13,625 nt of DNA. Origin: a virus. Taxonomy: Duplodnaviria; Heunggongvirae; Uroviricota; Caudoviricetes. Made by a program: the position numbers and the translations under genes. The DNA is taken from the IMG/VR virus record IMGVR_UViG_2681813234_000008, positions 1 through 13,625 of that record. One strand, given 5' to 3'. This document shows positions 1 through 13,625 of this stretch, in pieces. The first letter of the stretch is position 1, and every line of letters starts with the position of its first letter. The notes below the pieces were generated by a model. The model searched no databases. It saw only the letters and a list, made by a program, of their open reading frames with translations, and was not told the DNA's origin.

Positions 1-74
1 TCCGTAACGCCTCTGCCACGCGCGTAACGTGACAGGGATTAAAGGTAAACCAATTGATTTTGCAAGTTTTTATT

Positions 75-1361
75 TTACCCCGCTTTCTTATGGGGCATGC
101 ATGGGACACTTTCAGATAGTCTTCTGTTAAGAAGTTCTATCTGTTCGTGATTGTTGTCTTTCATCCATGCTCCGTAAACATTGAATACCATTTGTGCGTT
201 TGTGTGGCCCATCTGGCTTGCGATAAAACTAGGATTAGCTCCTGCGGCAAGTGACCAGCATGCATAGGTATGCCTGGATTGATACGATTTTCTGTGTCTC
301 AGACCTGCGCGTTTTAAGATACTTGTCCATGACTCCCTGATGGAGTCAACCTTATAGTGCGGTCCGGAAAACTGCCGCTGTTTTATTACCTGAGGACTAA
401 AAACAAAAGTGCATTTATGCACAGTACTTCTCCCATATTCCCTCTGCTTTACCTCTACAGAATGCTGTTTTCCAAGCATGGTCATTTCCGCTTGGCTTTT
501 AAGAGCATCAATAGCTGGTTGAACTAGATGAATCGTTCTTCCGGTACCAGCATCAGTTTTTGGTGGAGTGAATTCGCCTAGTTTTGTATAATTCCGGCGG
601 ATGGTTATAGTCCTCGCTTTAAGGTCTATATCTTCCCAGGCCAGTGATACCAGCTCCCCGTGACGAATACCTGTGTATACAGCGATAATCCACAGGTTTT
701 TTGTTTGTTGATGACGGCAAGCCTCAATAAAACGAATAAATTCGTCACGGGTGAGGGGATCTGGTTCTATCCTGGACTTTTTTAATGGTGTCAGACCGTT
801 AAATGGATTTCCTGATGTATAACCATTATCTGTTGCAAATTGAAACATTCCAGCTATGGTTGTCATATAGTAGTTTACTGTGACCACTGAGCGTCCTTTT
901 ATGGAAGAAATTTTTCCGTTAGAAAGCTTTTGATAACCGGTCAACAGATCTCTCCTTACGAAAAGCAAATCCTCTTTTGTTACAGATGAAACCAGTCTTT
1001 TTTCACCTAACATTGGCAACATGTTTTTAATTACTGACTGGTAACGGTTAAGTGCATTTGCACAAATCTCTATTTTCTTCAGTTCAAGCCATCTTTCCGA
1101 AAGTGCTTTAATGGTTATCTCTCTTTTCCCCAGACCAAAGTGTTTCAGGTTAGGGGACTCAGGGAACTGTGCTGCATAGTCGAAACTCCCCATTCTTATT
1201 GCAAAACAAACGGAAGTGCGGAGGTCACCTGCGATTTTCCGGTTTTTGGCGGTGTCAGGAACACCGAGGTTTTCTCTGACACGTTTGCCGTTATAGTGAA
1301 ACCATATGCGGAGTGATCCGCCATGATTTTCAACGCCTGTTGGGTATGATGTATTACTCAT
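75..1361 (-). CDS. int: Tyrosine recombinase (phage integrase)
   Basis: 428-aa ORF with C-terminal catalytic signature (RHTYA, GHTNAQMVFNVYGAW with putative catalytic Tyr) and an N-terminal arm-type region (GSLRIWFHYNGKRVRE). Strong SD (GGAGG) 5 nt upstream of the ATG at 1361. Confidence 0.85.
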   Translation of the reverse strand: MSNTSYPTGVENHGGSLRIWFHYNGKRVRENLGVPDTAKNRKIAGDLRTSVCFAIRMGSFDYAAQFPESPNLKHFGLGKREITIKALSERWLELKKIEICANALNRYQSVIKNMLPMLGEKRLVSSVTKEDLLFVRRDLLTGYQKLSNGKISSIKGRSVVTVNYYMTTIAGMFQFATDNGYTSGNPFNGLTPLKKSRIEPDPLTRDEFIRFIEACRHQQTKNLWIIAVYTGIRHGELVSLAWEDIDLKARTITIRRNYTKLGEFTPPKTDAGTGRTIHLVQPAIDALKSQAEMTMLGKQHSVEVKQREYGRSTVHKCTFVFSPQVIKQRQFSGPHYKVDSIRESWTSILKRAGLRHRKSYQSRHTYACWSLAAGANPSFIASQMGHTNAQMVFNVYGAWMKDNNHEQIELLNRRLSESVPCMPHKKAG

Positions 1362-1394
1362 TAAACCTCCCAGACGTCCAGGAGCATTAACAGG

Positions 1395-1649
1395 TTAACC
1401 GGAACTTGCATTTTTAACACCTGGTTGTTTCTGATTTTCGATCCAGCGCATAATTTCCTCTATGTTGTATACGCATTCACTGTTGCTCTTCGGAATTCCA
1501 TCGACAGCGTAATGTCGATATTCTTTCCCCTGTAGCCATGATTTTTTCCTGGCTCGCTCAATGGTGCCTGGTTTTAGCCCTGTCGAAGCAATGAGGGTGC
1601 TTTCTGTACACCATTTACTTGGTGTTATTTGATAGATGATTGTCTGCAT
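1395..1649 (-). CDS. xis: Excisionase-like small DNA-binding protein
   Basis: 84-aa basic ORF 33 nt upstream of int on the same strand, with SD GAGGT. Position and size fit Xis/AlpA-type directionality factors; family assignment by eye only. Confidence 0.55.
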   Translation of the reverse strand: MQTIIYQITPSKWCTESTLIASTGLKPGTIERARKKSWLQGKEYRHYAVDGIPKSNSECVYNIEEIMRWIENQKQPGVKNASSG

Positions 1650-1656
1650 GTCAACC

Positions 1657-1803
1657 TCATAAAACTTTCAGCCCACGGCAGTGGCACCACACCTCAAACA
1701 TTCGTTTCACAACTTCACGGCAGTAGAAACCGTCAACATCTCGCGTCAGGTCATAACGATTGCCGTAACGCTGGCGTACCCATAGCTCAAACGCTTTATT
1801 CAT
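1657..1803 (-). CDS. Small hypothetical protein (48 aa), not in the ORF track
   Basis: Manual translation gives MNKAFELWVRQRYGNRYDLTRDVDGFYCREVVKRMFEVWCHCRGLKVL. ATG sits 3 nt after the stop of the upstream gene with an AAGGAAG SD about 6 nt upstream; it fills the gap between the 80-aa gene and xis. Confidence 0.3.
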   Translation of the reverse strand: MNKAFELWVRQRYGNRYDLTRDVDGFYCREVVKRMFEVWCHCRGLKVL

Positions 1804-1806
1804 TCG

Positions 1807-2049
1807 CTACTTCCTTTTCATGGCTCGTAATTTTTTCAGATGAGCTTCCTGCTCTGTTTCTGCCAGAATTTGTCGGTATTCCTGGTGATCGATCCGTTCA
1901 AACGATTCATTAAAATCGTTCATTTTTACCGATTGTGTTCGCCCATCCATTCTTCTGTACAACACGGTGTTATTTATGCAGCGAATAATTTTTACTGGGT
2001 AACCGGCACTGTCGGTATACAGTTGTCCCTGATTAATCAAAGCAAACAT
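1807..2049 (-). CDS. Hypothetical protein (80 aa)
   Basis: Track ORF 1807..2172, trimmed to the internal ATG at 2049, which has an AGGAG SD about 6 nt upstream. No recognisable domain. Confidence 0.5.
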   Translation of the reverse strand: MFALINQGQLYTDSAGYPVKIIRCINNTVLYRRMDGRTQSVKMNDFNESFERIDHQEYRQILAETEQEAHLKKLRAMKRK

Positions 2050-2080
2050 TTTTTCTCCTGCTCTCTGAATAGTGAGAACT

Positions 2081-2452
2081 TCAGAGCCGTATGTTTGTAG
2101 CGGGTTCAATACTGATAATTTCTGCTGAGATAAGCATCCCGGCAAGCCAGAGTTCTCTGGACAGGTCTTCATCCTGACATATCAGTTCGCCAATATTAAT
2201 GGTGGCCATGATATCTGTTTCCCCTGTGCGCTCATCCTCGACTTCTTCATAAGGCAGCGTTGCGTACAGGCTTTCAATAGCGCAACTGATAACATCCAGT
2301 CCGGTCAGATTGCCGCCGACAGTAACTTCGAATGTTTCGCGGTATTCCCATAGTCCGAAAGTTAATCGAACGGTTTGTTTTGCCATGCGTCCGCATGACG
2401 TCAGATTCGGGTCATAGTTCATTATTTGCGGTTGGGTATTATGGGTGTTCAT
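2081..2452 (-). CDS. Hypothetical acidic protein (123 aa)
   Basis: Track ORF with an AAGGGA SD-like sequence upstream, same strand as the neighbouring operon. No recognisable domain. Confidence 0.5.
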   Translation of the reverse strand: MNTHNTQPQIMNYDPNLTSCGRMAKQTVRLTFGLWEYRETFEVTVGGNLTGLDVISCAIESLYATLPYEEVEDERTGETDIMATINIGELICQDEDLSRELWLAGMLISAEIISIEPATNIRL

Positions 2453-2492
2453 CTGCTTTTCCCTTAGCCCGGCGGCCTGCCGGGCATATAAG

Positions 2493-3320
2493 TTATTTAA
2501 CCTGGATAAATGGCGTATTGGCGCCGCTGGTCATGTATTGCGGCAGTGTGCCGTTCCATTTATTGATGGCTTCCAGTTCCATAACTCCAGGGTTCTGGCG
2601 CAGAGCTTCACCGCGTAAACGAATAGCATCGGCTTCGGCCTGGGCTTTTGTGCGAATCGCATCAGCCTGTCCGGCAGCTTCCGCGCGCAGCATGTTGGCT
2701 TCCGCTTCGCGCTGTTTTACTTCCTGCTCGCGTTGCAGGGTTTTCTGGTTTGCCGTGACTTTGGCATTAATGCTGTCGATAACGGTTGGTGGGTACTCCG
2801 GTTTACCTACATATGAGAGGCTCACTACCTGAATACCGATGGGTGTCATTTCTGCCTGAATGTCTTTAAGAGCAGCATCCAGCAGTTCAGACTTGCCGCC
2901 GTCGATAAATTTGTCGGTGGTCATTTTGCTGGCCAGTCGGTTGAGTGCGTCGGCGATCTTCTGGCGCAGGTCGGTGTCGGTAATGTCATCCACGCCTTTG
3001 CGGTAAGTCTGAAACACCGTGGTAACTTTGGATGGATCAACTTTGTAGGCCACGCCAATGTGATAGCCGATGGTTGTACCGTCACTCATCTGGAAACTGA
3101 ACGGTTCATCGTAGGTCTTCATTTGTTTGAAGGTGGGGAAGATATAAACTTCAGTATTCCAGCCAGTCCAGTAGCGACCAACACCGACCACCTCACCGAC
3201 GCCTTTGTCGTCGCCCAGTTTATTTACCTTGATGCCAACATTACCTGGTTCAACGCGATCGCAACCGACAAGGCCAATAGTCGGCAGAACAATGGCTAAA
3301 GCAAAAATAATTTTTTTCAT
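2493..3320 (-). CDS. SPFH/Band-7 (HflK/HflC-like) lipoprotein, predicted inner-membrane anchored
   Basis: N-terminal signal peptide with lipobox LVGC followed by Asp at +2 (inner-membrane retention rule). Core resembles the HflK/HflC pattern (VEPGNVGIKVNKLG ... IGIQVVSLSYVGKPEYPPTV), followed by an Ala/Gln/Glu-rich coiled-coil tail. SD AAGGA; ATGA overlap with the upstream small gene. Confidence 0.7.
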   Translation of the reverse strand: MKKIIFALAIVLPTIGLVGCDRVEPGNVGIKVNKLGDDKGVGEVVGVGRYWTGWNTEVYIFPTFKQMKTYDEPFSFQMSDGTTIGYHIGVAYKVDPSKVTTVFQTYRKGVDDITDTDLRQKIADALNRLASKMTTDKFIDGGKSELLDAALKDIQAEMTPIGIQVVSLSYVGKPEYPPTVIDSINAKVTANQKTLQREQEVKQREAEANMLRAEAAGQADAIRTKAQAEADAIRLRGEALRQNPGVMELEAINKWNGTLPQYMTSGANTPFIQVK

Positions 3321-3505
3321 CTTTTATCCTTAGTGAAAGAAAGACCCTTGTAAATGGCATAAATGCAGGGCGGGGTCAGAAACGCCAGTGCAAAGCCAGA
3401 AATAACTGCTATCGTATCCTTCATGGATATAAGGAACGGAACGAGTAATCCGTAAATGCATGCGATAATTGCCAGTAAAATTACTATTGTGAAATACAGT
3501 CTCAT
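3317..3505 (-). CDS. Small two-helix membrane protein (62 aa), coupled to the SPFH gene
   Basis: Two hydrophobic stretches (YFTIVILLAIIACIYGLLVPFLI and IAVISGFALAFLTPPCIYAIY). Its stop overlaps the SPFH start as ATGA. Weak SD. Confidence 0.55.
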   Translation of the reverse strand: MRLYFTIVILLAIIACIYGLLVPFLISMKDTIAVISGFALAFLTPPCIYAIYKGLSFTKDKR

Positions 3506-3528
3506 TGGTCTGTGGTATCCCGATATTT

Positions 3529-3636
3529 TTAACCGACTGACAGCGCAATAAAGAGAATAATGATTTCAGTTAGTGTCAGTACTGTGGCAAGGATTAAAAT
3601 CAGTTTTACTCTGTTTAATTCACGGTTGCTTTTCAT
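3529..3636 (-). CDS. Putative 35-aa single-helix membrane peptide, not in the ORF track
   Basis: Manual translation gives MKSNRELNRVKLILILATVLTLTEIIILFIALSVG: charged N-terminus then one hydrophobic helix. It lies 46 nt after the 193-aa gene stop and 24 nt before the 62-aa membrane gene. No clear SD. Confidence 0.25.
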   Translation of the reverse strand: MKSNRELNRVKLILILATVLTLTEIIILFIALSVG

Positions 3637-3681
3637 ATAAACGGTTAGTAAAAGATGGAAGAATTATATTCTTCTTAATAT

Positions 3682-4263
3682 TTAATGTGTCACTGGCGCT
3701 TCTGACATACCATGAGTATTCAGGTCGTTAATCATTTCATCCAGAAGGAGTTCAAGCCCTTCGCGCCCCATAGCAGAGAGAATGAAACCATTATCAGGAT
3801 CTGCGATGAGCATTTTTTGATAGAGAAACAGAACTCGCCCGATGCCTTCAGTTTCGCCATATTTTTCAATAAATCCCCATTCGACATGGTTTTGCAGGGC
3901 AATGCGAAGTGGTCCTGGGTATATACTTATGCAACCATGTTTCCCCTTGTAAATAACTGCGCGATCTGTCGTCCCGTTATCGTTAGGGATATCAATAGTG
4001 CCGTTCTTGTCTTCCTCTTCACTGATAAACTTCATCACATACAGCCAGCGCCACTGAGCAACCTTCAGATCGACTGAAAATCTTCCCAGCAATCCGGCAT
4101 CATCAGCTTCGGCAAGACATTGCATGATTCTTAAACCGTGCCAGTATGGATTATCGAATTCGCCATCATTAAGCCGCTGTACGGCCTCAATATAATCAAT
4201 GGTTTTATTACCAATTTTTATGCCATGTGGCGTTACTTCTGGTCGGAACTCTGAATGATTCAT
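3682..4263 (-). CDS. Hypothetical protein (193 aa), distal gene of a coupled pair
   Basis: Track ORF 3682..4338, trimmed to the ATG at 4263 (MNHSEFRPEV...), which overlaps the upstream gene stop as ATGA. Very AT-rich; no recognisable domain. Confidence 0.6.
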   Translation of the reverse strand: MNHSEFRPEVTPHGIKIGNKTIDYIEAVQRLNDGEFDNPYWHGLRIMQCLAEADDAGLLGRFSVDLKVAQWRWLYVMKFISEEEDKNGTIDIPNDNGTTDRAVIYKGKHGCISIYPGPLRIALQNHVEWGFIEKYGETEGIGRVLFLYQKMLIADPDNGFILSAMGREGLELLLDEMINDLNTHGMSEAPVTH

Positions 4264-4448
4264 AATGTTTGCTCCTTTGCTGGTGGAATAATCGTGTAGC
4301 CAGCTCTTTTTGCCATCCACAGAAATGTATCCATGCAACCAACGAATTCATTATCCAACAGATGTTTTGAGTAAATTACTTCACCATTTTCAATAGTTAG
4401 CAACACTCTTACTTTTTTATGTGTTATGTTTTGTTGTTTTTCTTTCAT
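4260..4448 (-). CDS. Hypothetical small protein (62 aa), proximal gene of a coupled pair
   Basis: Track ORF with GGGAGA SD about 8 nt upstream of the ATG; AT-rich codon usage. Stop overlaps the start of the 193-aa gene. Confidence 0.5.
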   Translation of the reverse strand: MKEKQQNITHKKVRVLLTIENGEVIYSKHLLDNEFVGCMDTFLWMAKRAGYTIIPPAKEQTL

Positions 4449-4644
4449 TTATTTATCTCCCATATGCTTTGCGCAAATACAGGTTGGCTATATGAAGATA
4501 AGAATCTCCATGTTGTGCAATGAGGCAGGCAGTTTTATACGATGCCTTATGTTTCAGGAAAGTCATAACATAATCTCCTGCGAATAAAGGTTGCAACAAT
4601 CCCCGGCGATAAAACCGTAATAAACATTCAGGGAATATTTATTG

Positions 4645-5010
4645 TTATTGCGCTAATTCTTTTTCGGCAGCAGATTTTGCATATTCACATGCAAAATTCA
4701 GAATTTCGCTGCCAAGTGTTTTTGTTTCGTGATTACTGGACATATGTAATACCTGTGTTGCATGCAATAAATGATAAACATTTACCGCAAATGAATCAGG
4801 CTCCAGACAAATGCCTTCATAATCATCTTGTTGTGAGGTTGTTTCTGTCATTGCTCCTGAAGTGCATGCGAGCCTGTTTTTGACAATTCTCTTTCCTCTA
4901 ATCACTATATCGGCAACATCTATTGCCTTTACAACCTCCGGGAGAAGGTCCGGGTTTGTATAATCAAAGTCATTAACATGGAGAACAGTTATGTTTTCGA
5001 ACTTTTTCAT
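4645..5010 (-). CDS. Hypothetical protein (121 aa)
   Basis: Track ORF with GAGGAA SD upstream of the ATG at 5010. It lies downstream of an HTH gene on the repressor strand. No recognisable domain. Confidence 0.55.
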   Translation of the reverse strand: MKKFENITVLHVNDFDYTNPDLLPEVVKAIDVADIVIRGKRIVKNRLACTSGAMTETTSQQDDYEGICLEPDSFAVNVYHLLHATQVLHMSSNHETKTLGSEILNFACEYAKSAAEKELAQ

Positions 5011-5138
5011 GGCTTCCTCAGCTGACTTATATGTTCTGCTATATAGCGAGTCTCAGAAGTGTTTTCATATTGAGACTGTTTCCTCAATGATTGATAAAAA
5101 TGTTCGCATGTACCTTGAGGGGCGAAGCGGCGATTATG

Positions 5139-5657
5139 TCACCATTGGTATTGGTTCTTCCGTAGAAGAGCTTCGCGAGATAAGGAGCAAACTTGTTGAG
5201 ATGCGTCATGGTGTTGCTGCTCCTCACTTTTTGGTTGCTCCGGAGGAGTAACCTCACCAGTTAACAGCCACATCGGATCGCAGCCAAGAATATTTGCCAG
5301 TGGGATAAGCATACTGATAGTTGGTTCATACTTTCCGCTCTCCCACTGGATGATAATTTCTTCATCGAGATCGAGCAGCCTGGCGAGTTCGGCGGTTGTT
5401 AAGCCGCAAGCTTCGCGTTGAGTGCGAAGGCGGGAACTAATAGTCACCATAGCAAGGCGACGGCAAGATTTAGTGCGCTCTTGCCTTCTTTGTGAAAAAT
5501 CTTCTTGTGCAAGAGAAGATGCCAGTTCAGCTGAAATTAGAAGTAATGAATATGAAACATCTCGCTCTTTCTCGGTACCTGAAGACAACAAGCAGGCTGC
5601 GTTAAGGGATGCAGAAAGCTTGTTGATGTCATCTATAGCGTCAATAAAATCGATCAT
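5139..5657 (-). CDS. XRE-family helix-turn-helix protein (172 aa) with extra N-terminal region
   Basis: Central HTH_3-like segment (GLTTAELARLLDLDEEIIIQWESGKYEPTISMLIPLANILGCDPMWLLTGE). GGAG lies upstream of the ATG at 5657; the alternative start at M70 (5450) lacks an SD. Confidence 0.6.
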   Translation of the reverse strand: MIDFIDAIDDINKLSASLNAACLLSSGTEKERDVSYSLLLISAELASSLAQEDFSQRRQERTKSCRRLAMVTISSRLRTQREACGLTTAELARLLDLDEEIIIQWESGKYEPTISMLIPLANILGCDPMWLLTGEVTPPEQPKSEEQQHHDASQQVCSLSREALLRKNQYQW

Positions 5658-5697
5658 TTCTCAAAGCTCCAATAATGCGCTGTGAGGCAATGATTCA

Positions 5698-5728
5698 TCA
5701 ATTATAATTGATAGTCAAGTATGATTTA
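5698..5728. promoter_or_regulatory. Operator-like 14-bp perfect palindrome TCAATTATAATTGA (5698-5711) plus adjacent half-site TCAAGTA (5715-5721)
   Basis: Palindrome read directly from the sequence. It sits between the repressor stop and the start of the 172-aa HTH gene and matches the site family in the repressor/cro intergenic region. Confidence 0.45.
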
Positions 5729-6211
5729 GTCTTTTTGATTGAGTTTTTGCGTGATTAGCAAGATGTTTTTTGAGTGTTCTTCCAGAAGATTTTTTGCAAA
5801 ATCCAACACCTTTACCCTCTCTTTTGTGGGTAAATTCGCAAATATTTCAAATAAATAGCTTGTATCCTCAATGATTGTTGGATCTATAGATTCAATAATA
5901 CCTCGTATCAGTTTGTTGCTCATTGAATCAAAAAGAGTTTCTCCATTCTCCCGGGTAAGTGTGTACTTAGGTTTTTCTGTGTTTCCATTTAAAAGCCACT
6001 GTACGTCGCACTGTAAGAGTTCTGATAATTTCAATAGCTTATCGCTAGTTATGCTTGTCTTTCCTTTCTCCCACAAAGATACAGCAGCCATTGATACCCC
6101 CATTGCTTGTGCCAGCTTTAATTGACTTAAACCAAGTTCTTTTCTGCGTGACAGAATCCTGTGCCCCATTGAGAGTGGGGAAGACTGACATGACTTTAGT
6201 TTTGTATCCAT
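5726..6211 (-). CDS. Prophage repressor, XRE-family HTH, no recognisable S24 peptidase domain (CI analog)
   Basis: N-terminal HTH (LGLSQLKLAQAMGVSMAAVSLWEKGKTSITSDKLLKLSELLQCDVQWLLNG). Transcribed divergently from the Cro-like gene. Track ORF trimmed to the ATG at 6211, which has a GAGGG SD. The C-terminal 90 aa show no Ser/Lys autopeptidase motif. Confidence 0.7.
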   Translation of the reverse strand: MDTKLKSCQSSPLSMGHRILSRRKELGLSQLKLAQAMGVSMAAVSLWEKGKTSITSDKLLKLSELLQCDVQWLLNGNTEKPKYTLTRENGETLFDSMSNKLIRGIIESIDPTIIEDTSYLFEIFANLPTKERVKVLDFAKNLLEEHSKNILLITQKLNQKD

Positions 6212-6291
6212 ATTGCCCTCAAGTATACTTGATAGTAAGATTGTGTTGTAATTCCTGTTGCTAAGCTTAATCAATTAATGTTGAGGTCTCA
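6212..6291. promoter_or_regulatory. Divergent immunity promoter/operator region with two 14-bp sites, TCAAGTATACTTGA (6219-6232) and TCAATTAATGTTGA (6271-6284)
   Basis: The first site is a perfect palindrome and the second is a 12/14 match to the 5698 palindrome. Each abuts the SD of the gene on its side. -10-like hexamers (TATACT, TAAGAT) are present, but promoters are not mapped. Confidence 0.5.
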
Positions 6292-6531
6292 ATGATAAAG
6301 ATTAGTGCAATTAAGTTTTATGGTTCGCAAAGGGCGATTGCTCAATCACTGGGGATTAGCGAGCAAGCTGTTTCTCAATGGCCAGAACTCATTCCTAAAG
6401 GTGCAGCTCTGGAGCTTGAGAAACTCACTGATGGCGCTTTGAAGTGCGATCTGAACCTGTACAAGAACCGCTCGCGCAAAAACAAGCGTGAATTGCACCC
6501 AAGCTTAGCGCACACGGGGGAGGAGAAGTGA
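6292..6531 (+). CDS. Cro/YdaS-like small DNA-binding regulator
   Basis: 79-aa ORF with the YdaS/Cro-type motif GSQRAIAQSLGISEQAVSQW ... PKGAALELEKLTDGALKCD. Divergent from the repressor; GAGG SD. Confidence 0.7.
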   Translation: MIKISAIKFYGSQRAIAQSLGISEQAVSQWPELIPKGAALELEKLTDGALKCDLNLYKNRSRKNKRELHPSLAHTGEEK

Positions 6532-6851
6532 TGGGCGTGTACGTTGATCGTAGAGAAATACTTCTTGATTGCGTGCAGATAGACATGCCCTCGGCTTATA
6601 GCTCAGCAGATGCTGAGTGGATTAAGCAGCAGTTACTTAGCCTGACACTCACGGCACGACAAAAAGCCATCCAGCGTTATGGCGTTGTGTATCAGGAGGC
6701 ATTTGAGGCCGAACCCATTTCGTACCGTAAGGAGAACCGGGCAAGGCATGAAGCAAACACAAGGCTTCGCCTGTTTGTGAGAAATCAGGGCAGAGCTTTA
6801 CAGGGGTATGCCGCCGAACCTCCCCTGGCTGGAACGCAATCGCGATCCTGA
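6531..6851 (+). CDS. Hypothetical protein (106 aa) in the CII position, Arg-rich C-terminus
   Basis: ATG overlaps the cro stop (TGATG) with a GGAGGAG SD upstream. No recognisable HTH, so a CII-like role is a positional guess only. Confidence 0.5.
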   Translation: MGVYVDRREILLDCVQIDMPSAYSSADAEWIKQQLLSLTLTARQKAIQRYGVVYQEAFEAEPISYRKENRARHEANTRLRLFVRNQGRALQGYAAEPPLAGTQSRS

Positions 6852-6935
6852 TTGTTTCGGGTTTGAAGGTACCCGAACAGAAGCAGGCTTAAAGGTGCCT
6901 GTTCAGGTTGGCAACCAACTGACCCAATTCCTCAT

Positions 6936-6960
6936 GCGTACTAGGTAAGTAGTACGTTTT
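6936..6960 (+). terminator. Weak intrinsic-terminator-like hairpin
   Basis: Stem CGTACTA / TAGTACG with loop GGTAAG, followed by TTTT. AT-rich stem, so stability is modest. Lies about 85 nt after the 106-aa gene. Confidence 0.3.
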
Positions 6961-6963
6961 TAT

Positions 6964-7017
6964 GGGGAAGAGGGAAAGGGGGGAGGGGGGGGATTGGGTG
7001 CAGGGGTAGGAATAGGG
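6964..7017. repeat. G-rich polypurine tract with runs G4, G3, G6, G8, G3, G4, G3
   Basis: Read directly: GGGGAAGAGGGAAAGGGGGGAGGGGGGGGATTGGGTGCAGGGGTAGGAATAGGG. The first 30 nt are pure purine. It sits inside a 428-bp intergenic region. Confidence 0.9.
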
Positions 7018-7279
7018 ACTTTTCCAACAGGAGAGAGCCATTGGTTAAGTAGATCACTGTCTTAAGGGCGCAATTTAAAAAAACGCCTGTATCAGCAAGA
7101 TAGTACAAGGCGCTCAGGCGCTGAGAAACGAAAAAGGGTTCTTCCTGGAAGAGTGTTTTTCAGGGGAACTGAATCTGAAGGGAGGCTGGCAGCCTTTGGG
7201 GAGGCCACCAGCCATGTGAGGGGGAATCCATGAAAACCACATCACAAAATTATTATCTCATCAGCACTGGAGCAAAACA

Positions 7280-8932
7280 ATGGAGCTGACGATCACGCCG
7301 AATTTTGCACAGGAACGAGCGTTAAACATGTTGCGTCGTGACTGGAAGGCAAATGACACCTTCATGGTGTATTCGCCAACTGGTAGCGGTAAAACCGGTT
7401 TGGCCGCTTTCATCGTTGCAGGGTTTGTCAGCCGTGGTATGCGCGTTCTGTTTTGTGCACCGTACACTATCCTGATTGGTCAGACGGCTAATCGCTTCGT
7501 GGAGTACGGGTTACCGGAGGATGAAATCGGTTATATCTGGGCGGATCACCCGAACTACGATCCGGACCGGAAAATTCAGATTGCCAGCGCCGACACGCTT
7601 ATTCGTCGTGTTTTTCCTGAAAATATTGATCTGCTGATTATCGACGAAGCACACCTGCGTAAAAAACGCATCCTGAAGGATATCGAACGTCTGCGCGGCA
7701 AAGGCGTAAAGGTGATTGGCCTGTCGGGTACTCCGTTTTCCCCGTTCCTGGGCAAATACTATGACCGACTAATTAAACCGACCACCATCGGCGAGTTAAT
7801 CCAGCGTGGCGATCTGAGTAAATACGAATTTTATGCGCCAACAAAGCCGGATCTGAAAGGCGTAAAAACCAAGTCTTCACTTGAGTACGGCAACGATTAT
7901 AACGAAGCTCAACTGGCTGAAATCATGTGCGGCTCTACGCTGGTGGGCGACATCGTACAGAACTGGCTGGAGAATGGCCGGGATCTGCCGACAATCGCGT
8001 TCTGCGTCAACGTAGCCCATGCTAATTTTCTGACAATCCAGTTTAACCAGGCTGGCATTAACGCTGAGGTCATGACCGCCAACACGCCAGTGGATGAGCG
8101 TCAGACCATCATTCACCGCTTTGAAACTGGTGCAACGAAAATCATCGTTAGTGTGGGCGTTCTGGTGGCTGGCTTCGATAGTGACGTTCGTTGCATCATC
8201 TACGCCAGGCCAACAAAAAGTGAAATTCGCTGGCTGCAGGCGATTGGGCGCGGCCTGCGCACAGCGCCGGGTAAAGAATCTTGTCTCATATTCGATCACA
8301 GTGGCACCGTACACCGCCTCGGTTACCCGGATTCTATCGAGTATGACGATCTCCCCGGTAAGTCTGATGGCATGGAGGAAAGTGCGCGCCGTGCAGCTGA
8401 GGAGCGGGCCGAAAAACTCCCCCATGAATGTTCTCAATGCCACTACATGAAACCCGCTGGTGTCTACGTCTGCCCGAAATGCGGGCATAAGCCGTTGGGT
8501 GGTGAGGATGTCGATACCGATACCGGGCGCAAACTTAAAAAGCTGGGTAAAAATCAGCATCTATCGACAAAGGCAGAGAAACAGGCTTGGTGGAGCCAGA
8601 TCAAATTTTATCAGCGCCAGCGCGTATCGCAGGGGAAAAAGCCCGTTAGTGATGGCTGGTGCGCTCACATTTTCCGGGAGAAGTTCGGCGAATGGCCGGA
8701 TAACCTGAGTGATTTCCCGATGGAAATTACCCCGGAGGTAAGCAACTACATCAGATACAAACTCATCAGGTTTGCGAAAGGGCAAAAACGCCCCCCTCAA
8801 CCACAGACAGAATCTCATCATGCAGGCGCATTGCCGCTAGGTTGTGCCGCAATTTACGAGCTCCCTGAGAACTGCCCGACTAAGGCAATTATCAACGCCA
8901 AACAGCAACTTCAGAAAAATGTAGTGGTGTGA
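7280..8932 (+). CDS. Superfamily-2 DEAD/DEAH-type helicase with C-terminal zinc ribbon (replication module)
   Basis: Walker A SPTGSGKTG, motif II LIIDEAH, motif III LSGTP, motif VI QAIGRGLR, and a C-terminal CSQCHYMKPAGVYVCPKCGH. GGAG SD upstream of the ATG. Confidence 0.85.
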   Translation: MELTITPNFAQERALNMLRRDWKANDTFMVYSPTGSGKTGLAAFIVAGFVSRGMRVLFCAPYTILIGQTANRFVEYGLPEDEIGYIWADHPNYDPDRKIQIASADTLIRRVFPENIDLLIIDEAHLRKKRILKDIERLRGKGVKVIGLSGTPFSPFLGKYYDRLIKPTTIGELIQRGDLSKYEFYAPTKPDLKGVKTKSSLEYGNDYNEAQLAEIMCGSTLVGDIVQNWLENGRDLPTIAFCVNVAHANFLTIQFNQAGINAEVMTANTPVDERQTIIHRFETGATKIIVSVGVLVAGFDSDVRCIIYARPTKSEIRWLQAIGRGLRTAPGKESCLIFDHSGTVHRLGYPDSIEYDDLPGKSDGMEESARRAAEERAEKLPHECSQCHYMKPAGVYVCPKCGHKPLGGEDVDTDTGRKLKKLGKNQHLSTKAEKQAWWSQIKFYQRQRVSQGKKPVSDGWCAHIFREKFGEWPDNLSDFPMEITPEVSNYIRYKLIRFAKGQKRPPQPQTESHHAGALPLGCAAIYELPENCPTKAIINAKQQLQKNVVV

Positions 8933-8937
8933 GTTTT

Positions 8938-9906
8938 ATGAAAACAGTAGATGCTGCGAAAGGCCGCTGGCCTGAAATTTTAGAGCATTTTGGTCTGCCA
9001 CCGATAACTGGAAAAAATCACTATAAAGGAGAATGCCCTGTATGCGGTGCGCGCGGAAAGTTGCGAATTGATGACCGTGACGGGCGTGGAACGTGGATTT
9101 GTACTTGCGGCAGCGGTGACGGTATGAAGCTTGTCACCCTGACACAGGGAAAACCATTCAATGAGGTTTGTAGGGAAATAGACCACCTGATCGGTAATGA
9201 TTTTCAGCGTGTAAAAATCCCGGTCAGCAGCAGCGCTACCAGCCTGCGTACAAAGGTTCTGAATAAGTTCGCGAAGCTGCAGCCGTTACGTGGCACTTCT
9301 GGTGCTGCGTATCTCAATGCGCGCGGCATTTTCAGTCTGCCGCTTGAAGCGATCCGTTTCAACGATAAGCAGCGCCATGCCGGGAGGGTGTATCAGTCGC
9401 TTTATTCCCTCGCCACCGATGATAAAGGGGAACTGTGCTATCTGCATCAGACATTACTCGATGGCCCCAAAAAAGCAGATATCGGTGCCAGTGCAAAGCG
9501 CCAAAAATCCCTGCAGGAAGATAACTATCTTGATCACGCCCGTTCAGTAGCGATCCGGATGTTCCCGGTAGCCAGCACACTTGGCATCGCCGAAGGCATC
9601 GAAACGGCTCTGTCAGCGCACCAGATTTACAACGTAAACACCTGGGCAACTATGACGGCTAACTTCATGAAGAAATTTCGTGTTCCGGCTGGCGTTAAGC
9701 ACCTGATTATTTTTGCTGACCGTGACGAAAACAGTGCCACCGGATTGGCAGCGGCCTATGAATGCGCTCATGCCAATCTGCTGGCAAAGAATGACCTGCA
9801 GCGCGTGAGCGTGTACTGGCCCGATCACGATGATTTTAACAACATGCTCATGAACGGCGATCAGGTTCGTGAGCTGGTTTTCTACAAGAAAAAGGCGACT
9901 GCGTAA
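8938..9906 (+). CDS. DNA primase, N-terminal zinc ribbon plus TOPRIM-like domain
   Basis: CPVCGARGKLRIDDRDGRGTWICTCG zinc-binding motif and an acidic TOPRIM-like motif LIIFADRDENSATG. Coupled to the helicase stop; the track start is a GTG at 8929, and the ATG at 8938 is preferred. Confidence 0.65.
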   Translation: MKTVDAAKGRWPEILEHFGLPPITGKNHYKGECPVCGARGKLRIDDRDGRGTWICTCGSGDGMKLVTLTQGKPFNEVCREIDHLIGNDFQRVKIPVSSSATSLRTKVLNKFAKLQPLRGTSGAAYLNARGIFSLPLEAIRFNDKQRHAGRVYQSLYSLATDDKGELCYLHQTLLDGPKKADIGASAKRQKSLQEDNYLDHARSVAIRMFPVASTLGIAEGIETALSAHQIYNVNTWATMTANFMKKFRVPAGVKHLIIFADRDENSATGLAAAYECAHANLLAKNDLQRVSVYWPDHDDFNNMLMNGDQVRELVFYKKKATA

Positions 9907-10766
9907 TGCGTACAGATAACAACGAACATAAAGCACTATTCACCATCCCGACGGCAGCGCATAGCTCCGCCCTGGCAAACATCAAGCCTCTGCCTGAGCA
10001 ACAGAGAATCACCGGGCATAAACAGACCGATGCCTATCTGTGGGTACTGGAGGTCATCCGCCTGAACGAACCGGCACATCTGGACGCTGCAGAAGCAGCG
10101 CTGGAGAAAATTAAAATCTCTCCAAAAGAGGCCGAGGAGCGGTATTCCCGTTATCTGCTGGCGAATGGCTGTGATCCTTTCCAGGCAGCTTTCGGTACTA
10201 TCGGTATGGATAATCCAGCGAGAGCCATTGAAAATGCGCGTAAGAACATCAAGAAAGCTGCTGATGTTCGCGCTACGTTCGGCAGCTATGAGGCTGCGAT
10301 GGAGGACGTAGAGGCCGAGCGAGTGATCAGGTCTTCCCAAAAATTTACTGATGATTACCTGTGGGGCTGGACCGCAGACGAAAAGAGAGACGGAAGCATT
10401 AACGGCAGTCGTATGAATGAAATTGATGATCAGCGTCGCGCATATGTTGATGGCTATCGTGACGTTCTGCCAGAGCCTCATACACTGTCAGATGTTGTTC
10501 GTGAATTTGTTTACTGGGACTGGCTTTACAACGTTCGCCGTACTGCTGGCCAGGAACTCGGCTACGACTTTGGTTATTCCGAACACCATGAGTCTGTATA
10601 CGACCGTGAGCGATACCTGGAAAAATTACTGGCAACCATCAAACCGGTGACACGCGCTGAAGCTGTGGAGGTGTGCCGCTGGTTTCTGGCAAGCGGAAAG
10701 GACGAATACATGGAAGACAACGGGGCGGCAGTCATTCTTAATCTGGTTGGAGAGTGCGAACAATGA
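9906..10766 (+). CDS. Hypothetical protein (286 aa)
   Basis: ATG overlaps the primase stop (TAATG). Codon usage matches the replication module. No recognisable domain. Confidence 0.6.
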   Translation: MRTDNNEHKALFTIPTAAHSSALANIKPLPEQQRITGHKQTDAYLWVLEVIRLNEPAHLDAAEAALEKIKISPKEAEERYSRYLLANGCDPFQAAFGTIGMDNPARAIENARKNIKKAADVRATFGSYEAAMEDVEAERVIRSSQKFTDDYLWGWTADEKRDGSINGSRMNEIDDQRRAYVDGYRDVLPEPHTLSDVVREFVYWDWLYNVRRTAGQELGYDFGYSEHHESVYDRERYLEKLLATIKPVTRAEAVEVCRWFLASGKDEYMEDNGAAVILNLVGECEQ

Positions 10767-10906
10767 GACTTGAGGCATCGCTAAAACATTTCAACTTTCA
10801 GGGGAGCGCACAGGACTCTTCCAATGCAGCAGCCACAGCCGCGCAGATACAGCAACAAACGAACTGACAGCAGTAAGATGGAGCGTTTCTTTTGAACAAC
10901 CAGACA

Positions 10907-11149
10907 ATGACTTTTACCCCTGAACAATTACGCAAACAGGCGCAGGAAATGCTGCGACAGGCGGAACAACTGGAAAAATCAGGCGTAACAAAAGATGCCA
11001 TTCGTCGGGATATGGTACCCGCGCTCAGAGAACTGATGCAGGCAAAACACCGCGCACAAAAAGCGGTGGATGAGCTGGTGGATTGTGTGGCAGAGCTGGA
11101 AACAAAAGTTGGAAAATTTGAAAAATTGGTGCAGGGGGTACTGCGTTGA
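10907..11149 (+). CDS. Hypothetical small coiled-coil protein (80 aa)
   Basis: Track ORF starts at a TTG; trimmed to the first ATG. Charged, helix-prone sequence (EQLRKQAQEMLRQAEQLEK). Its stop overlaps the rusA start. Confidence 0.45.
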   Translation: MTFTPEQLRKQAQEMLRQAEQLEKSGVTKDAIRRDMVPALRELMQAKHRAQKAVDELVDCVAELETKVGKFEKLVQGVLR

Positions 11150-11520
11150 TGCGCTTAGAGTGTGTTTTACCTTACCCACCGACGGTGAACACCTACTGGC
11201 GTCGTCGTGGCAGCACATATTTTGTATCAAAAGCAGGGGAGCGTTATCGCCGGGATGTGGCGCTTATTGTTCGCCAGCAGCGACTGAAATTAAACCTGTC
11301 CGGAAGGCTGGCAATAAAAATTATTGCAGAGCCGCCGGATAAGCGCCGTCGTGACCTGGACAATATTCTGAAAGCACCACTGGATGCGCTGACGCATGCC
11401 GGACTACTTATAGACGACGAGCAGTTTGATGAAATCAATATTGTGCGCGGACTGCCTGTTCCTGGTGGGCGGTTGGGCGTGAAGATTTACGAAATTACAG
11501 GTGATAACGATGGTGCGTGA
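11149..11520 (+). CDS. rusA: Holliday-junction resolvase RusA family
   Basis: Matches the RusA pattern ([40 protein letters not shown]), including the acidic catalytic residues. Typical Nin-region position. Confidence 0.8.
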
Positions 11521-11896
11521 TATTCAGCAGGTTATGGAGCGGTGGGGATCATGGGCTGCGAACAATCACGAAGATGTGTCATGGGCGTCAATCGCTGCTG
11601 GTTTTAAAGGATTAATCCCGCCGAAAGTGAAATCACGCCCTCAGTGTTCTGATGATGATGCAATGATAATTTGTGGCTGTATGGCCCGGTTGAACAAGAA
11701 AAATCAGGATTTGCACGATTTGTTGGTGGATTATTACGTAGGTGGAATGACTTTTATGGGGTTGGCACGAAAGCATGGGTGTTCGGATACCTGTATTGGC
11801 AAGCGCCTGCAGAAAGCGGAAGGGGTTATTGATGGCATGTTGATGATGCTTGATATCCGACTAGAGATGGACAGATACGTAGAACGAATCATGTAG
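11510..11896 (+). CDS. Late-gene antiterminator Q (phage 82/DLP12 QuuD-like family)
   Basis: Motifs [21 protein letters not shown] and Cys cluster [16 protein letters not shown]. Immediately followed by a promoter-plus-terminator unit. Start placed at the ATG at 11510, which has an AGGTGA SD. Confidence 0.7.
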
Positions 11897-11900
11897 GAGC

Positions 11901-11930
11901 TTGACCAGACACATTGTCCGGGGCTATATT
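11901..11930 (+). promoter_or_regulatory. Candidate late promoter pR' (-35 TTGACC, 18-bp spacer, -10 TATATT)
   Basis: Near-consensus sigma-70 hexamers 5 nt after the Q stop, followed by short hairpins and an intrinsic terminator about 75 nt downstream. Confidence 0.45.
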
Positions 11931-11990
11931 CCTCACGCGCCAGCAAAATCTGGCGTCGGGATTGGCGTCCCGGATGAAAAAGGCGACAAC

Positions 11991-12012
11991 AGACGCGCCA
12001 GCGTCTTTTTTG
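11991..12012 (+). terminator. Intrinsic terminator (tR'-like)
   Basis: Stem AGACGC / GCGTCT with loop GCCA, followed by TTTTTT. Confidence 0.5.
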
Positions 12013-12169
12013 TTGTCGTTTGCACTGTCACATCTCAATGGTGGGCTGTGTGGGGGCGGAGCGATCCGCGCCGGTTCCTTTTTCCCGGTTACGCCAACCC
12101 TGCACAGTTCACCACCATACTGATTGGCGTCAGCAGTGGTGATGATTCACATAGAAAAAGGATCATCCT

Positions 12170-12658
12170 ATGGCTATTCAAATCTCAGTTGAAACTCTTT
12201 CCCCGATCACCCATAACCAAATCCCTGTCATTACTACCGAGCTTTTGGCACAACTTTATGGCACCGAAACTAATAACATCAAAGTGAACTATACACGCAA
12301 TGCCGAGCGTTTTGTTTGTGGGAAACACTACTTCAAATTGGAAGGGGCTGAGTTGCGGGAATTTAAGAACAAGGTTACTCAAAGTAACTTAGTTGCACCG
12401 CGTACAAAGCACCTCATCCTCTGGACAGAACGCGGAGCAGCCCGTCACGCCAAAATGCTGGAAACCGATCAGGCGTGGGAAGTGTTCGAAAAACTGGAAG
12501 ACTGTTATTTCAGCCAAAAACAACCACCAGCAGCACAAAACACCCCAACCCAAAATGATGGATGCGCATTACTGATCCACTTCGATAAACACGGTCAGGT
12601 CGACTTCACGGAAAAACTACCCGCCGATGCGATGGTATGCACTCTGGAACGGTTTTAA
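12170..12658 (+). CDS. ORF6N-domain protein (antirepressor-like N-terminal domain family)
   Basis: Pattern LAQLYGTETNNIKVNYTRNAERFVCGKHYFKLEGAELREFKN ... LILWTERGAARHAKMLETDQAW is typical of ORF6N/KilA-N-like phage proteins. AGGA SD 7 nt upstream. Confidence 0.65.
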   Translation: MAIQISVETLSPITHNQIPVITTELLAQLYGTETNNIKVNYTRNAERFVCGKHYFKLEGAELREFKNKVTQSNLVAPRTKHLILWTERGAARHAKMLETDQAWEVFEKLEDCYFSQKQPPAAQNTPTQNDGCALLIHFDKHGQVDFTEKLPADAMVCTLERF

Positions 12659-12734
12659 AAATTTTCCCCGAACGCTTTACGATCGTAAAAAGTTGAATAT
12701 CCTGTTAAGAGTGGTTACTACGCCAAACAGCTTA

Positions 12735-12760
12735 AACCCGCCACTGAGCGGGTTTTTTTA
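12735..12760 (+). terminator. Intrinsic terminator
   Basis: AACCCGC / GCGGGTT stem with short loop, followed by TTTTTTT; lies 77 nt after the ORF6N gene stop. Confidence 0.6.
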
Positions 12761-12881
12761 TGCCTGAAAAACGGTACAGGACGTTAAACGCGCTGGTGGT
12801 TGCGAATACTGGTCTTTCGGCTTGTATTTTTGTAAATCGATATATACTTATCTTGTGACCAGTAATGTCAGGGCAATTGAT

Positions 12882-13625
12882 ATGAATGAAGCTTGTTCTG
12901 TTGTTTTTGTTCATTCCCCGTTTGTTGTGCTCTTTGAAGGAAAAGAGCTCTCTCTGGAAAGTGGTAGTGCACTTCTTGTCAGGGGGGGAGCTGGATCGTT
13001 ATTGCCCTTTTCGGAATGTTTTCGGCGAATAAGTCTCAGTGAATCGACAATTATCCGTTACCTGTTGTGTGGAGACGAAAAACAGGATGTAGTTTTAGTC
13101 CGGCAAATACCACGATATCTTTGCGTGAGTTTTCCCAAGGCAGAATTGATGGGCATCCTGATTGATTATCTTTGTGAGGAAAAGATTCATACGGACAATT
13201 TAGCGGAAATGCTTTCCTTTTCGTGTCTGGCGTTTTTCTCATCAGAGAAAATGTTTTCGTCGTTTCTGACCGCGTGTATTGGCAATATTAGTGACAGGCT
13301 TAGTGCATTGTTTCGTACGGACATTGCAGCAAACTGGACTCTGAGAGATGTGTCTTCGCGGTTATGTATCAGTGAAAGTTTGTTAAAAAAAAGACTGAAA
13401 GAAGAAGGCACCTGTTTCAGTGAGTTGTTGCTTACAGAGAGAATGAGAATGGCAGCAATGCTGTTGAATCAATCTCGTTGCGCCATCAACAGAATCGCTG
13501 CTCAGTGTGGTTATAATTTTACATCTTATTTTATCAGCGTATTCAGGAGTTATTTTGGTGTTACACCGGCAGGTTACAGGATGGCTGCATTCAATGAGAT
13601 GAGTTTAAGTGTTACTCAAGAATAA
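12882..13625 (+). CDS. AraC/XylS-family transcriptional regulator, AppY/YdeO/GadX-like
   Basis: C-terminal AraC HTH (ESLLKKRLKEEGTCFSELLLTERMRMAAMLL ... CGYNFTSYFISVFRSYFGVTPAGY). N-terminus MNEACSVVFV resembles AppY as recalled from memory. Track start is a TTG at 12822; the ATG at 12882 is preferred. AT-rich gene. Confidence 0.8.
   Translation: MNEACSVVFVHSPFVVLFEGKELSLESGSALLVRGGAGSLLPFSECFRRISLSESTIIRYLLCGDEKQDVVLVRQIPRYLCVSFPKAELMGILIDYLCEEKIHTDNLAEMLSFSCLAFFSSEKMFSSFLTACIGNISDRLSALFRTDIAANWTLRDVSSRLCISESLLKKRLKEEGTCFSELLLTERMRMAAMLLNQSRCAINRIAAQCGYNFTSYFISVFRSYFGVTPAGYRMAAFNEMSLSVTQE

Follow-up and report, generated by a model that had tools for sequence, protein, structure and literature searches.

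A minus-strand gene pair at positions 2493 to 3505 of a 13,625-nucleotide prophage sequence (IMG/VR record IMGVR_UViG_2681813234_000008, positions 1 to 13,625; here called the window) belongs to a conserved, horizontally mobile two-gene phage envelope module that is shared by temperate and virulent phages. One gene (2493..3320) encodes a 275-amino-acid lipoprotein of the SPFH, or Band-7, superfamily, and the gene upstream of it (3317..3505) encodes a 62-amino-acid protein with two transmembrane (TM) segments that are predicted to form a hairpin. Adjacent, same-strand pairs of the two families, PHROG 200 and PHROG 1130, were confirmed in more than 10 phage lineages. An earlier note on this DNA, made from the sequence alone, had placed both open reading frames (ORFs) at these coordinates and had described an SPFH protein with an inner-membrane type of lipobox, coupled to a small membrane protein, in the position where lambda carries cIII, kil, and sieB. 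The analyses described below bear out each of these points.

The SPFH protein corresponds to L05 of phage phiP27, with which it shares 99.3% amino acid identity, and it matched the profile phrog_200, annotated as "lipoprotein," with an E value of 3.3e-114. The Pfam Band_7 domain (PF01145) scored 108.4 bits against a gathering score of 23.6 (E = 5.5e-31) and covers residues 22 to 208 (2697..3257), a region that was modeled as a high-confidence beta/alpha core. Ahead of this domain lies a signal peptide with a lipobox (residues 1 to 20; 3261..3320) that reads LVGC and ends in Cys20, with Asp at the +2 position and Arg at +3. The N terminus, MKKIIFALAIVLPTIGLVGC followed by DR, starts with MKK and satisfies PROSITE pattern PS51257, which calls for a basic n-region and a cysteine at positions 15 to 35. 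The same pattern was found in 98 of 120 close homologs, and Asp-Arg occupied the +2 and +3 positions in 93. Toward the other end of the protein is the motif KWNGTLP (residues 254 to 260; 2541..2561), which belongs to a C-terminal tail conserved across the family as KW(N/D)GxLP. In an alignment of eight phages, ranging from E. coli phages to Staphylococcus phage K, residues K254, W255, G257, and P260 were invariant, as was the lipobox cysteine. The residues that follow the cysteine vary elsewhere, being Tyr-Asp in N4, Glu-Arg in KNP2, and Ser-Lys in Pseudomonas phages, and several distant homologs have no cysteine and carry a plain N-terminal hydrophobic signal anchor instead. The anchor of the family thus reads as a lipobox in most members and as a plain signal-anchor helix in some. 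For a signal-anchored variant, the only possible site would be the cytoplasmic membrane, with the SPFH domain outside. A structural study of LolCDE showed that entry is blocked by Asp or Glu at +2 or by a hydrophilic residue at +3; it describes Asp at +2, when combined with particular residues at +3, as the Lol-avoidance signal (PMC9595528). The Asp-Arg pair of the phage protein agrees with this rule, which predicts its retention in the inner membrane, and an inner-membrane lipobox is a reasonable reading. The signal-anchored relatives and the predicted inner-membrane partner also speak for this location.

The partner protein matched phrog_1130, annotated as "membrane protein," with an E value of 2.5e-23. 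It has hydrophobic segments at residues 7 to 25 and 32 to 50, a turn with the motif LVPFLISMKDT, and a basic C terminus; the positive-inside rule predicts an N-in/C-in hairpin with the turn in the periplasm. Partners from other phages, which are about 60 to 80 amino acids long, show the same succession of TM1, short turn, TM2, and basic tail, and they carry variants of the turn-centered motif such as LLPSMVSALDS, LLPRMISSDSS, VLPAMISAKDT, and IGPALVSSRDD. By this predicted topology, the most conserved part of the hairpin is the only part able to reach the periplasm. The TGA stop codon of the hairpin gene overlaps the ATG start of the SPFH gene as ATGA (3317..3320), and a Shine-Dalgarno sequence for the SPFH gene, AAGGA, lies within the last codons of the hairpin ORF, which to judge from the sequence is a classic layout for translational coupling. 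The 4-nucleotide ATGA overlap recurs in P88, Pylas, Hali, Burkholderia phage PR1, a Klebsiella prophage, and IMG/VR loci.

The association between the two genes also held among divergent relatives. We built a hidden Markov model (HMM) from six enterobacterial partners and searched it against 2,082 ORFs of 25 to 200 amino acids, taken from both strands of 36 divergent loci. The best matches, some 30 in number, were all same-strand ORFs upstream of the SPFH gene and mostly abutted it; E values ran from 1.6e-10 upward and were 0.01 or lower in 20 of the 36 loci. A first scan of IMG/VR, which used the KWNGTLP motif as the search pattern, gave near-identical loci only, and a second, seeded with a Pseudomonas phage homolog, added diversity. 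Where the SPFH genes were near identical, an intact hairpin ORF, of one of three sequence types, was present in about 73 of 80 IMG/VR loci. A candidate single-TM ORF of 35 amino acids (MKSNRELNRVKLILILATVLTLTEIIILFIALSVG), of uncertain status, was also translated from the minus strand at 3529..3636, within the 2493-3636 cassette that the earlier note had proposed to express. It is intact in phiP27 and Stx2d_112808, and its relatives, at about 94 to 97% nucleotide identity, are too alike for a selection test. The ORF has no Shine-Dalgarno sequence and gave no family match among the PADLOC, PHROG, and NCBIfam profiles. Pylas has a different one-TM protein, gp27, whose gene overlaps that of the hairpin. 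A third membrane component of the module may be common.

A tblastn search of 50,697 phage genomes identified an SPFH homolog in 652 records, of which 594 were nearly full length. Among them are those of phiP27 and Shiga toxin (Stx) phages (97 to 99% identity), a P1-like phage (91%), phage-plasmids (about 79%), the N4-like Klebsiella phage Pylas (73%), coliphage N4 gp20 (62%), and Vequintavirinae such as PVP-SE1, GAP31, and KNP2 (47 to 50%). Homologs with 25 to 45% identity occur in phages of Pseudomonas, Stenotrophomonas, Burkholderia, Erwinia, Caulobacter, and Desulfovibrio, and others, with 24 to 28% identity, are found in Staphylococcus Kayviruses, including phage K, and in haloarchaeal tailed viruses. 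Many of these phages are strictly virulent. The hairpin gene adjoins the SPFH gene in phiP27 and the Stx2 phages, in the P2-like phage P88 (gp11, in the early operon downstream of cox), in a P1-like phage (between a tRNA cluster and ban), in Pylas (gp28, annotated "2 TMDs N in C in"), in Pseudomonas phage Hali, in Burkholderia phage PR1, and in a Klebsiella lambdoid prophage, in which the two genes again fall between cI and int. It is near the SPFH gene in KNP2, and the Vequintavirinae homolog is adjacent or within two genes; in Bruynoghevirus, the hairpin homolog is two genes, or about 450 nucleotides, upstream of the SPFH gene. The gp19/gp20 pair of coliphage N4 is directly homologous, with the same gene order and overlap and the same hairpin motif in gp19, and differs in that N4 is virulent and its lipobox is followed by Tyr-Asp. 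Directly upstream of this pair is N4 gp18, annotated as similar to P22 gp17, and the trio (2407-3831 in our locus L002) comes just after the N4 RNAPII genes. P22 requires its gene 17 to overcome exclusion exerted by a different prophage. In phage K, the SPFH gene gp197 has a noncanonical LLMC box and is accompanied by a 102-amino-acid one-TM protein that is unlike the hairpin (locus L010, 2154-3253). That pair forms a terminator-flanked unit right after the endolysin gene, a context unlike that in phages of Gram-negative bacteria.

Among complete E. coli genomes, 682 of 5,426 (about 13%) contain a related gene, in 419 chromosomal and 349 plasmid places, and the Prokaryotic Genome Annotation Pipeline (PGAP) labels these copies "SPFH domain-containing protein." The plasmid copies, about half of the E. 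coli occurrences, are represented by NZ_CP124469 (3194-3927) and NZ_AP027178 (86522-87262). Their alleles are more divergent (76 to 89% nucleotide identity), and the plasmids, at about 95 to 110 kb, are as large as phage-plasmids of the P1-like and SSU5-like kinds. Only in its core does the SPFH gene show nucleotide similarity to P88 and the P1-like phages, which points to mosaic exchange.

An AlphaFold2 monomer model of the SPFH protein, built on 17 homologs, had a mean predicted local distance difference test (pLDDT) score of 77, with values of 85 to 95 in the core. The model consists of a signal helix, the SPFH alpha/beta core, one unbroken helix of 65 residues (178 to 242; 2595..2789), and a low-confidence tail. 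The long helix, assigned by DSSP on the model, is rich in Ala, Glu, and Gln, aligns with the coiled-coil region of HflK, and would represent the coiled-coil wall element of SPFH cages. In a Foldseek comparison with the PDB, a probability of 1.00 was obtained for the human prohibitin complex, HflK/C of E. coli (alone or bound to FtsH), erlin1/2, stomatin, flotillin, QmcA-YbbJ, and the shoulder domain of the vault; E values lay between 1e-13 and 1e-7, and identity was 14 to 18% throughout. Sequence comparison alone detected just two PDB matches, HflK (E = 1e-3) and a fragment of prohibitin-2. The phage protein is thus a full-length cage-type SPFH protein that is no closer to HflK/C than to the prohibitins, and from the conserved helix and C-terminal motif we infer that it assembles into a ring or cage.

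The earlier note had called the protein HflK/HflC-like, and this description stands at the level of the superfamily. It does not extend to HflK/C specifically, as Foldseek ranked prohibitin, HflK/C, erlin, and stomatin equally, and the NCBIfam equivalog models gave only 26.6 bits for HflC (TIGR01932; cutoff, 134.4) and 23.1 bits for HflK (TIGR01933; cutoff, 159.4). With scores so far below the equivalog cutoffs, we rejected assignment as an HflK or HflC ortholog. Nor is there a pair of K and C paralogs, each with its own N-terminal TM helix; the phage locus has a single SPFH gene with a lipobox and a neighbor encoding the 62-amino-acid hairpin. The E. coli HflK/HflC-FtsH cage (PDB entries 7VHP/7VHQ, 7WI3, and 9CZ2) nevertheless has, like the phage protein, an SPFH core, a long coiled-coil helix, and a C-terminal cap element, and its inner-membrane anchor likewise places the SPFH domain in the periplasm, the side predicted for the phage protein. 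The two differ in that identity is about 17% and the phage version has a lipid anchor in place of a TM helix, one subunit type, and a separate two-TM partner. Prohibitin-type proteins (human PHB1/2, entries 8RRH/9O9Z, and the bacterial "prohibitin family") gave the best Foldseek match (E = 3.6e-13) and are similar in size, and some of the phage SPFH homologs are annotated as prohibitin family. However, identity is 15 to 16%, the membrane and the anchoring differ, and the client of prohibitin is the m-AAA protease.

A third point of comparison is provided by the SPFH-NfeD operons, such as E. coli QmcA-YbbJ (PDB entry 8Z5G) and YqiJ-YqiK, in which an SPFH gene is likewise paired with a gene for a small membrane protein, the two being cotranscribed. 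The architecture of QmcA-YbbJ, a cage with an enclosed partner, has been solved and matches the phage protein at the fold level. In contrast, the phage partner has no NfeD or OB-fold and no Pfam match, and QmcA faces the cytoplasm, whereas the phage protein should face the periplasm. Neither the 62- nor the 35-amino-acid ORF gave a match in Pfam, NCBIfam, or PADLOC. The hairpin was also considered as an Imm or Sie protein, and for these as for NfeD there was no Pfam or NCBIfam match; its relatives in the databases are all labeled "hypothetical protein" and carry no Pfam domain.

Our preferred reading, to which we give a probability of roughly 40%, is that the module serves envelope protection or superinfection exclusion, guarding the inner membrane of the infected or lysogenic cell against secondary insults. 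The SPFH subunits would form a ring or cage, like all solved relatives of the same architecture. The hairpin, made in equimolar amounts, would dock to the SPFH protein via its conserved periplasmic turn and would supply a transmembrane fence, or palisade, that is beyond the reach of a lipid anchor alone. HflK/C, stomatin, and flotillin build such a palisade from their own TM or hairpin segments, whereas the phage module is proposed to build it from a separate protein. The assembly would then enclose a patch of inner membrane or a host membrane complex. Judged solely from gene position in phiP27, N4, and P88, the module would be made early or in the middle of infection, its place being the putative leftward early operon in this prophage, the middle genes of N4, and the P88 early operon. 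The main candidate for its action would be a block to genome entry by superinfecting phages, following a logic like that of T4 Imm and Sp on an SPFH scaffold.

Known superinfection exclusion proteins, such as T4 Imm and Sp, T5 Llp, and P22 SieA, are early small membrane proteins or lipoproteins. A role in exclusion or protection is suggested because virulent and temperate phages alike encode such functions early, as small inner-membrane proteins and lipoproteins, and the presence of the module in virulent phages fits a function that is used during infection. The earlier note had itself offered a membrane-level exclusion module as an alternative, and this is plausible. The proteins just named, together with HK97 gp15, resemble the module in being products of early accessory genes and in comprising a small inner-membrane protein and/or an envelope lipoprotein, but they lack an SPFH domain and have no sequence or fold kinship to the module. 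The superinfection exclusion system of N4 has yet to be identified (PMC12642591). A bolder form of the proposal holds that the hairpin and the periplasmic SPFH protein make up a pan-phage class of device, not recognized before, for inner-membrane gating or superinfection exclusion, in which an SPFH cage fenced by the equimolar hairpin would seal or sequester a membrane site or host complex that incoming DNA needs. The device would be common to lambdoid, P1-like, and P2-like prophages, phage-plasmids, and virulent phages such as N4, in which it could be the missing exclusion system that feeds into lysis inhibition; we consider this version rather doubtful.

Several points weigh against a role in protection or exclusion. 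The full-text literature yielded no published function for any member of the family, only mentions of phage SPFH proteins in genome annotation, and neither the N4 lysis paper nor the CRISPRi-ART paper mentions gp19 or gp20. No similarity to known exclusion proteins (T4 Imm, P22 SieA/SieB, Cor, and Llp) or to defense proteins was found with Pfam, PHROG annotation, or PADLOC. Oligomerization, lipidation, localization, and the contact between hairpin and SPFH protein are all features that we infer, and generic SPFH biology would fit membrane stabilization or protease control equally well. Finally, an "HflK/C-like" protein of a Pasteurella prophage, reported to occur in outer membrane vesicles (OMVs) and to be a virulence factor (PMC9872710), if orthologous, would argue for another location and another role. 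Assignment to a known defense system was rejected, since the SPFH protein, both small ORFs, and five neighboring genes gave no match to PADLOC-DB v2 at an E value of 0.01 or lower. An argument from the P2 defense hotspots was likewise dropped; the P88 cassette is found between cox and the replication gene, within the early operon and outside the tin/old and Z/fun hotspots, so its location provides no guilt by association.

The earlier note had suggested that the protein could tune the FtsH protease, which degrades lambda CII, and so bias lysis versus lysogeny. In this scheme, a periplasmic SPFH cage would capture FtsH or displace host HflKC, thereby altering the turnover of CII-like or membrane substrates. 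The predicted topology, anchored in the inner membrane and facing the periplasm, is the same as that of HflK/C, and few bacterial SPFH proteins share it. HflK also gave the best sequence match in the PDB, HflK/C-FtsH structures are among the top fold matches, and the gene sits in a putative early-left operon at the place where lambda has the FtsH inhibitor cIII. However, the equivalog scores and the equally good matches to prohibitin, erlin, and stomatin, all at the same low identity, speak against mimicry of HflK/C in particular, as do the single SPFH gene, without a K/C pair, and the lack of a TM helix of its own. The distribution is a further objection, in that the module is common in the strictly virulent N4, Pylas, Vequintavirinae, Bruynoghevirus, and Kayvirus, and SPFH homologs occur even in haloarchaeal viruses. 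Archaeal hosts are not known to have FtsH. Presence in strictly lytic phages such as N4 makes a dedicated switch between lysis and lysogeny unlikely; the proposed FtsH/CII bias is therefore disfavored, and we regard mimicry of HflK/C as a whole as quite unlikely. If it were true, it would constitute a second phage strategy, beside lambda CIII, for controlling the CII protease.

A scaffold for membrane integrity or lysis timing, in which the cage would steady the energized inner membrane over long productive infections in a flotillin- or Psp-like manner, delay premature holin triggering or leakage, and raise the burst, is possible, although we think it rather improbable. SPFH proteins generally organize or protect membranes, and members of the family are often found in phages whose genomes are large or whose cycles are long (N4, Vequintavirinae, Kayvirus, CbK-like phages, and jumbo phages). 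N4 shows lysis inhibition (PMC12642591), and the phage K pair directly follows the endolysin gene, between terminators. Yet the genes lie in early or middle regions of N4, P88, and phiP27, outside the lysis cassettes, and more than 60 spontaneous rapid-lysis mutants of N4 mapped elsewhere. Much less probable still is a lysogenic conversion lipoprotein of the cell surface or of vesicles that would aid the host within animals by stimulating the immune system, conferring serum resistance, or promoting adhesion. The model for this idea is Pasteurella multocida PM0222, a 25- to 35-kDa prophage-encoded "HflK/C-like" protein that is reported to be expressed in the lysogen, to occur in OMVs, and to signal through Toll-like receptor 1/2 (TLR1/2), and whose deletion reportedly attenuates virulence (PMC9872710). 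TLR1/2 signaling would fit a triacylated lipoprotein, and the window is a relative of a prophage of the Shiga toxin-producing E. coli type. However, homology of PM0222 to the PHROG 200 family could not be confirmed, the +2 Asp speaks against sorting to the outer membrane in E. coli, and the idea accounts neither for the members in virulent phages nor for the conserved inner-membrane partner.

The SPFH gene entered GenBank with the phiP27 sequence and is annotated as a matter of routine, so that its observation as such is not new. The earlier note had not recognized the arrangement as a described phage function, and this is correct insofar as no published function was found; the databases do know the gene, as phiP27 L05, as the PHROG 200 "lipoprotein," and under its PGAP name. 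We found no description of the SPFH lipoprotein and a homologous two-TM hairpin as a conserved cassette across very different phages, of the two as an SPFH-partner pairing distinct from SPFH-NfeD, or of their distribution as evidence against a role specific to lysogeny. SPFH cages (HflK/C, prohibitin, stomatin, flotillin, and erlin) are rapidly being solved, and their effect on the enclosed membrane is debated. Phages appear to have adopted a minimal version, with a lipid anchor and a separate two-helix partner, and a phenotype for it would show what one of the largest unannotated families of phage proteins does and would offer a compact model SPFH system. A defined phenotype might also reveal the superinfection exclusion system of N4 or the input into its lysis inhibition.

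The window covers the left and central portions of a lambdoid prophage of the phiP27 type. DNA identity over the region from 2300 to 3800 is 97% with Enterobacteria phage phiP27 and 94% with a group of Stx2-converting phages. ORF and Pfam analysis placed, on the minus strand, an integrase gene (int; 75-1361), an excisionase gene (xis; 1395-1649), and genes for a DUF4222 protein (1807-2172) and a DUF5406 protein (2081-2452) before the SPFH and hairpin pair, which is followed by three genes of no assigned function (up to 5010) and two helix-turn-helix (HTH) repressor-like genes (5139-5657 and 5726-6274). The plus-strand genes are, in order, those for a P22_Cro-type protein, a helicase, a Toprim primase, RusA, a Q antiterminator, an ORF6N protein, and an AraC-type regulator. 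The pair thus lies between xis and the repressor genes, and from synteny this xis-to-immunity stretch can soundly be taken as the counterpart of the early-left accessory genes of lambda, the cIII/kil/sieB region.

Consensus scans for promoters and terminators around the cassette gave nothing above shuffled expectation, and we accordingly rejected the idea of a moron with its own promoter or terminator. On the minus strand at 3658-3693 is a perfect 7-bp palindrome, GAAGAAT-ATA-ATTCTTC, with an exact TATAAT (3663-3668) inside it. A GTGACA at 3688-3693, 19 nucleotides 5' of the TATAAT, overlaps the stop codon of the preceding gene, and CATCTTTT comes after. This element, just before the small ORFs, could be a weak promoter/operator or a weak terminator. 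It is kept in phiP27 and in an Stx2d phage, both of which are too closely related for this to be informative.

The DUF4222 and DUF5406 genes (1807-2452, minus strand) overlap by about 90 nucleotides when called from their first start codons. The DUF4222 gene probably begins at an internal start codon, because its Pfam match begins at residue 45 and a similar overlap is present in the phiP27 annotation (L03/L04). The two HTH_3 repressor-like genes (5139-6274, minus strand) encode adjacent proteins of 172 and 182 amino acids in place of one cI, and a Pfam scan of both returned only HTH-type DNA-binding and related families. This region is unlike that of phiP27, whose L10 and L11 genes differ in size. 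ARAGORN found no tRNA genes in the window. At its right end, downstream of the Q antiterminator and ORF6N genes, the gene for the AraC-family regulator (HTH_18/HTH_AraC; 12822-13625, plus strand) is cut by the end of the window. Its position is that at which Stx phages carry stx, and the regulator recalls the prophage-encoded AraC-like regulators of enterohemorrhagic E. coli.

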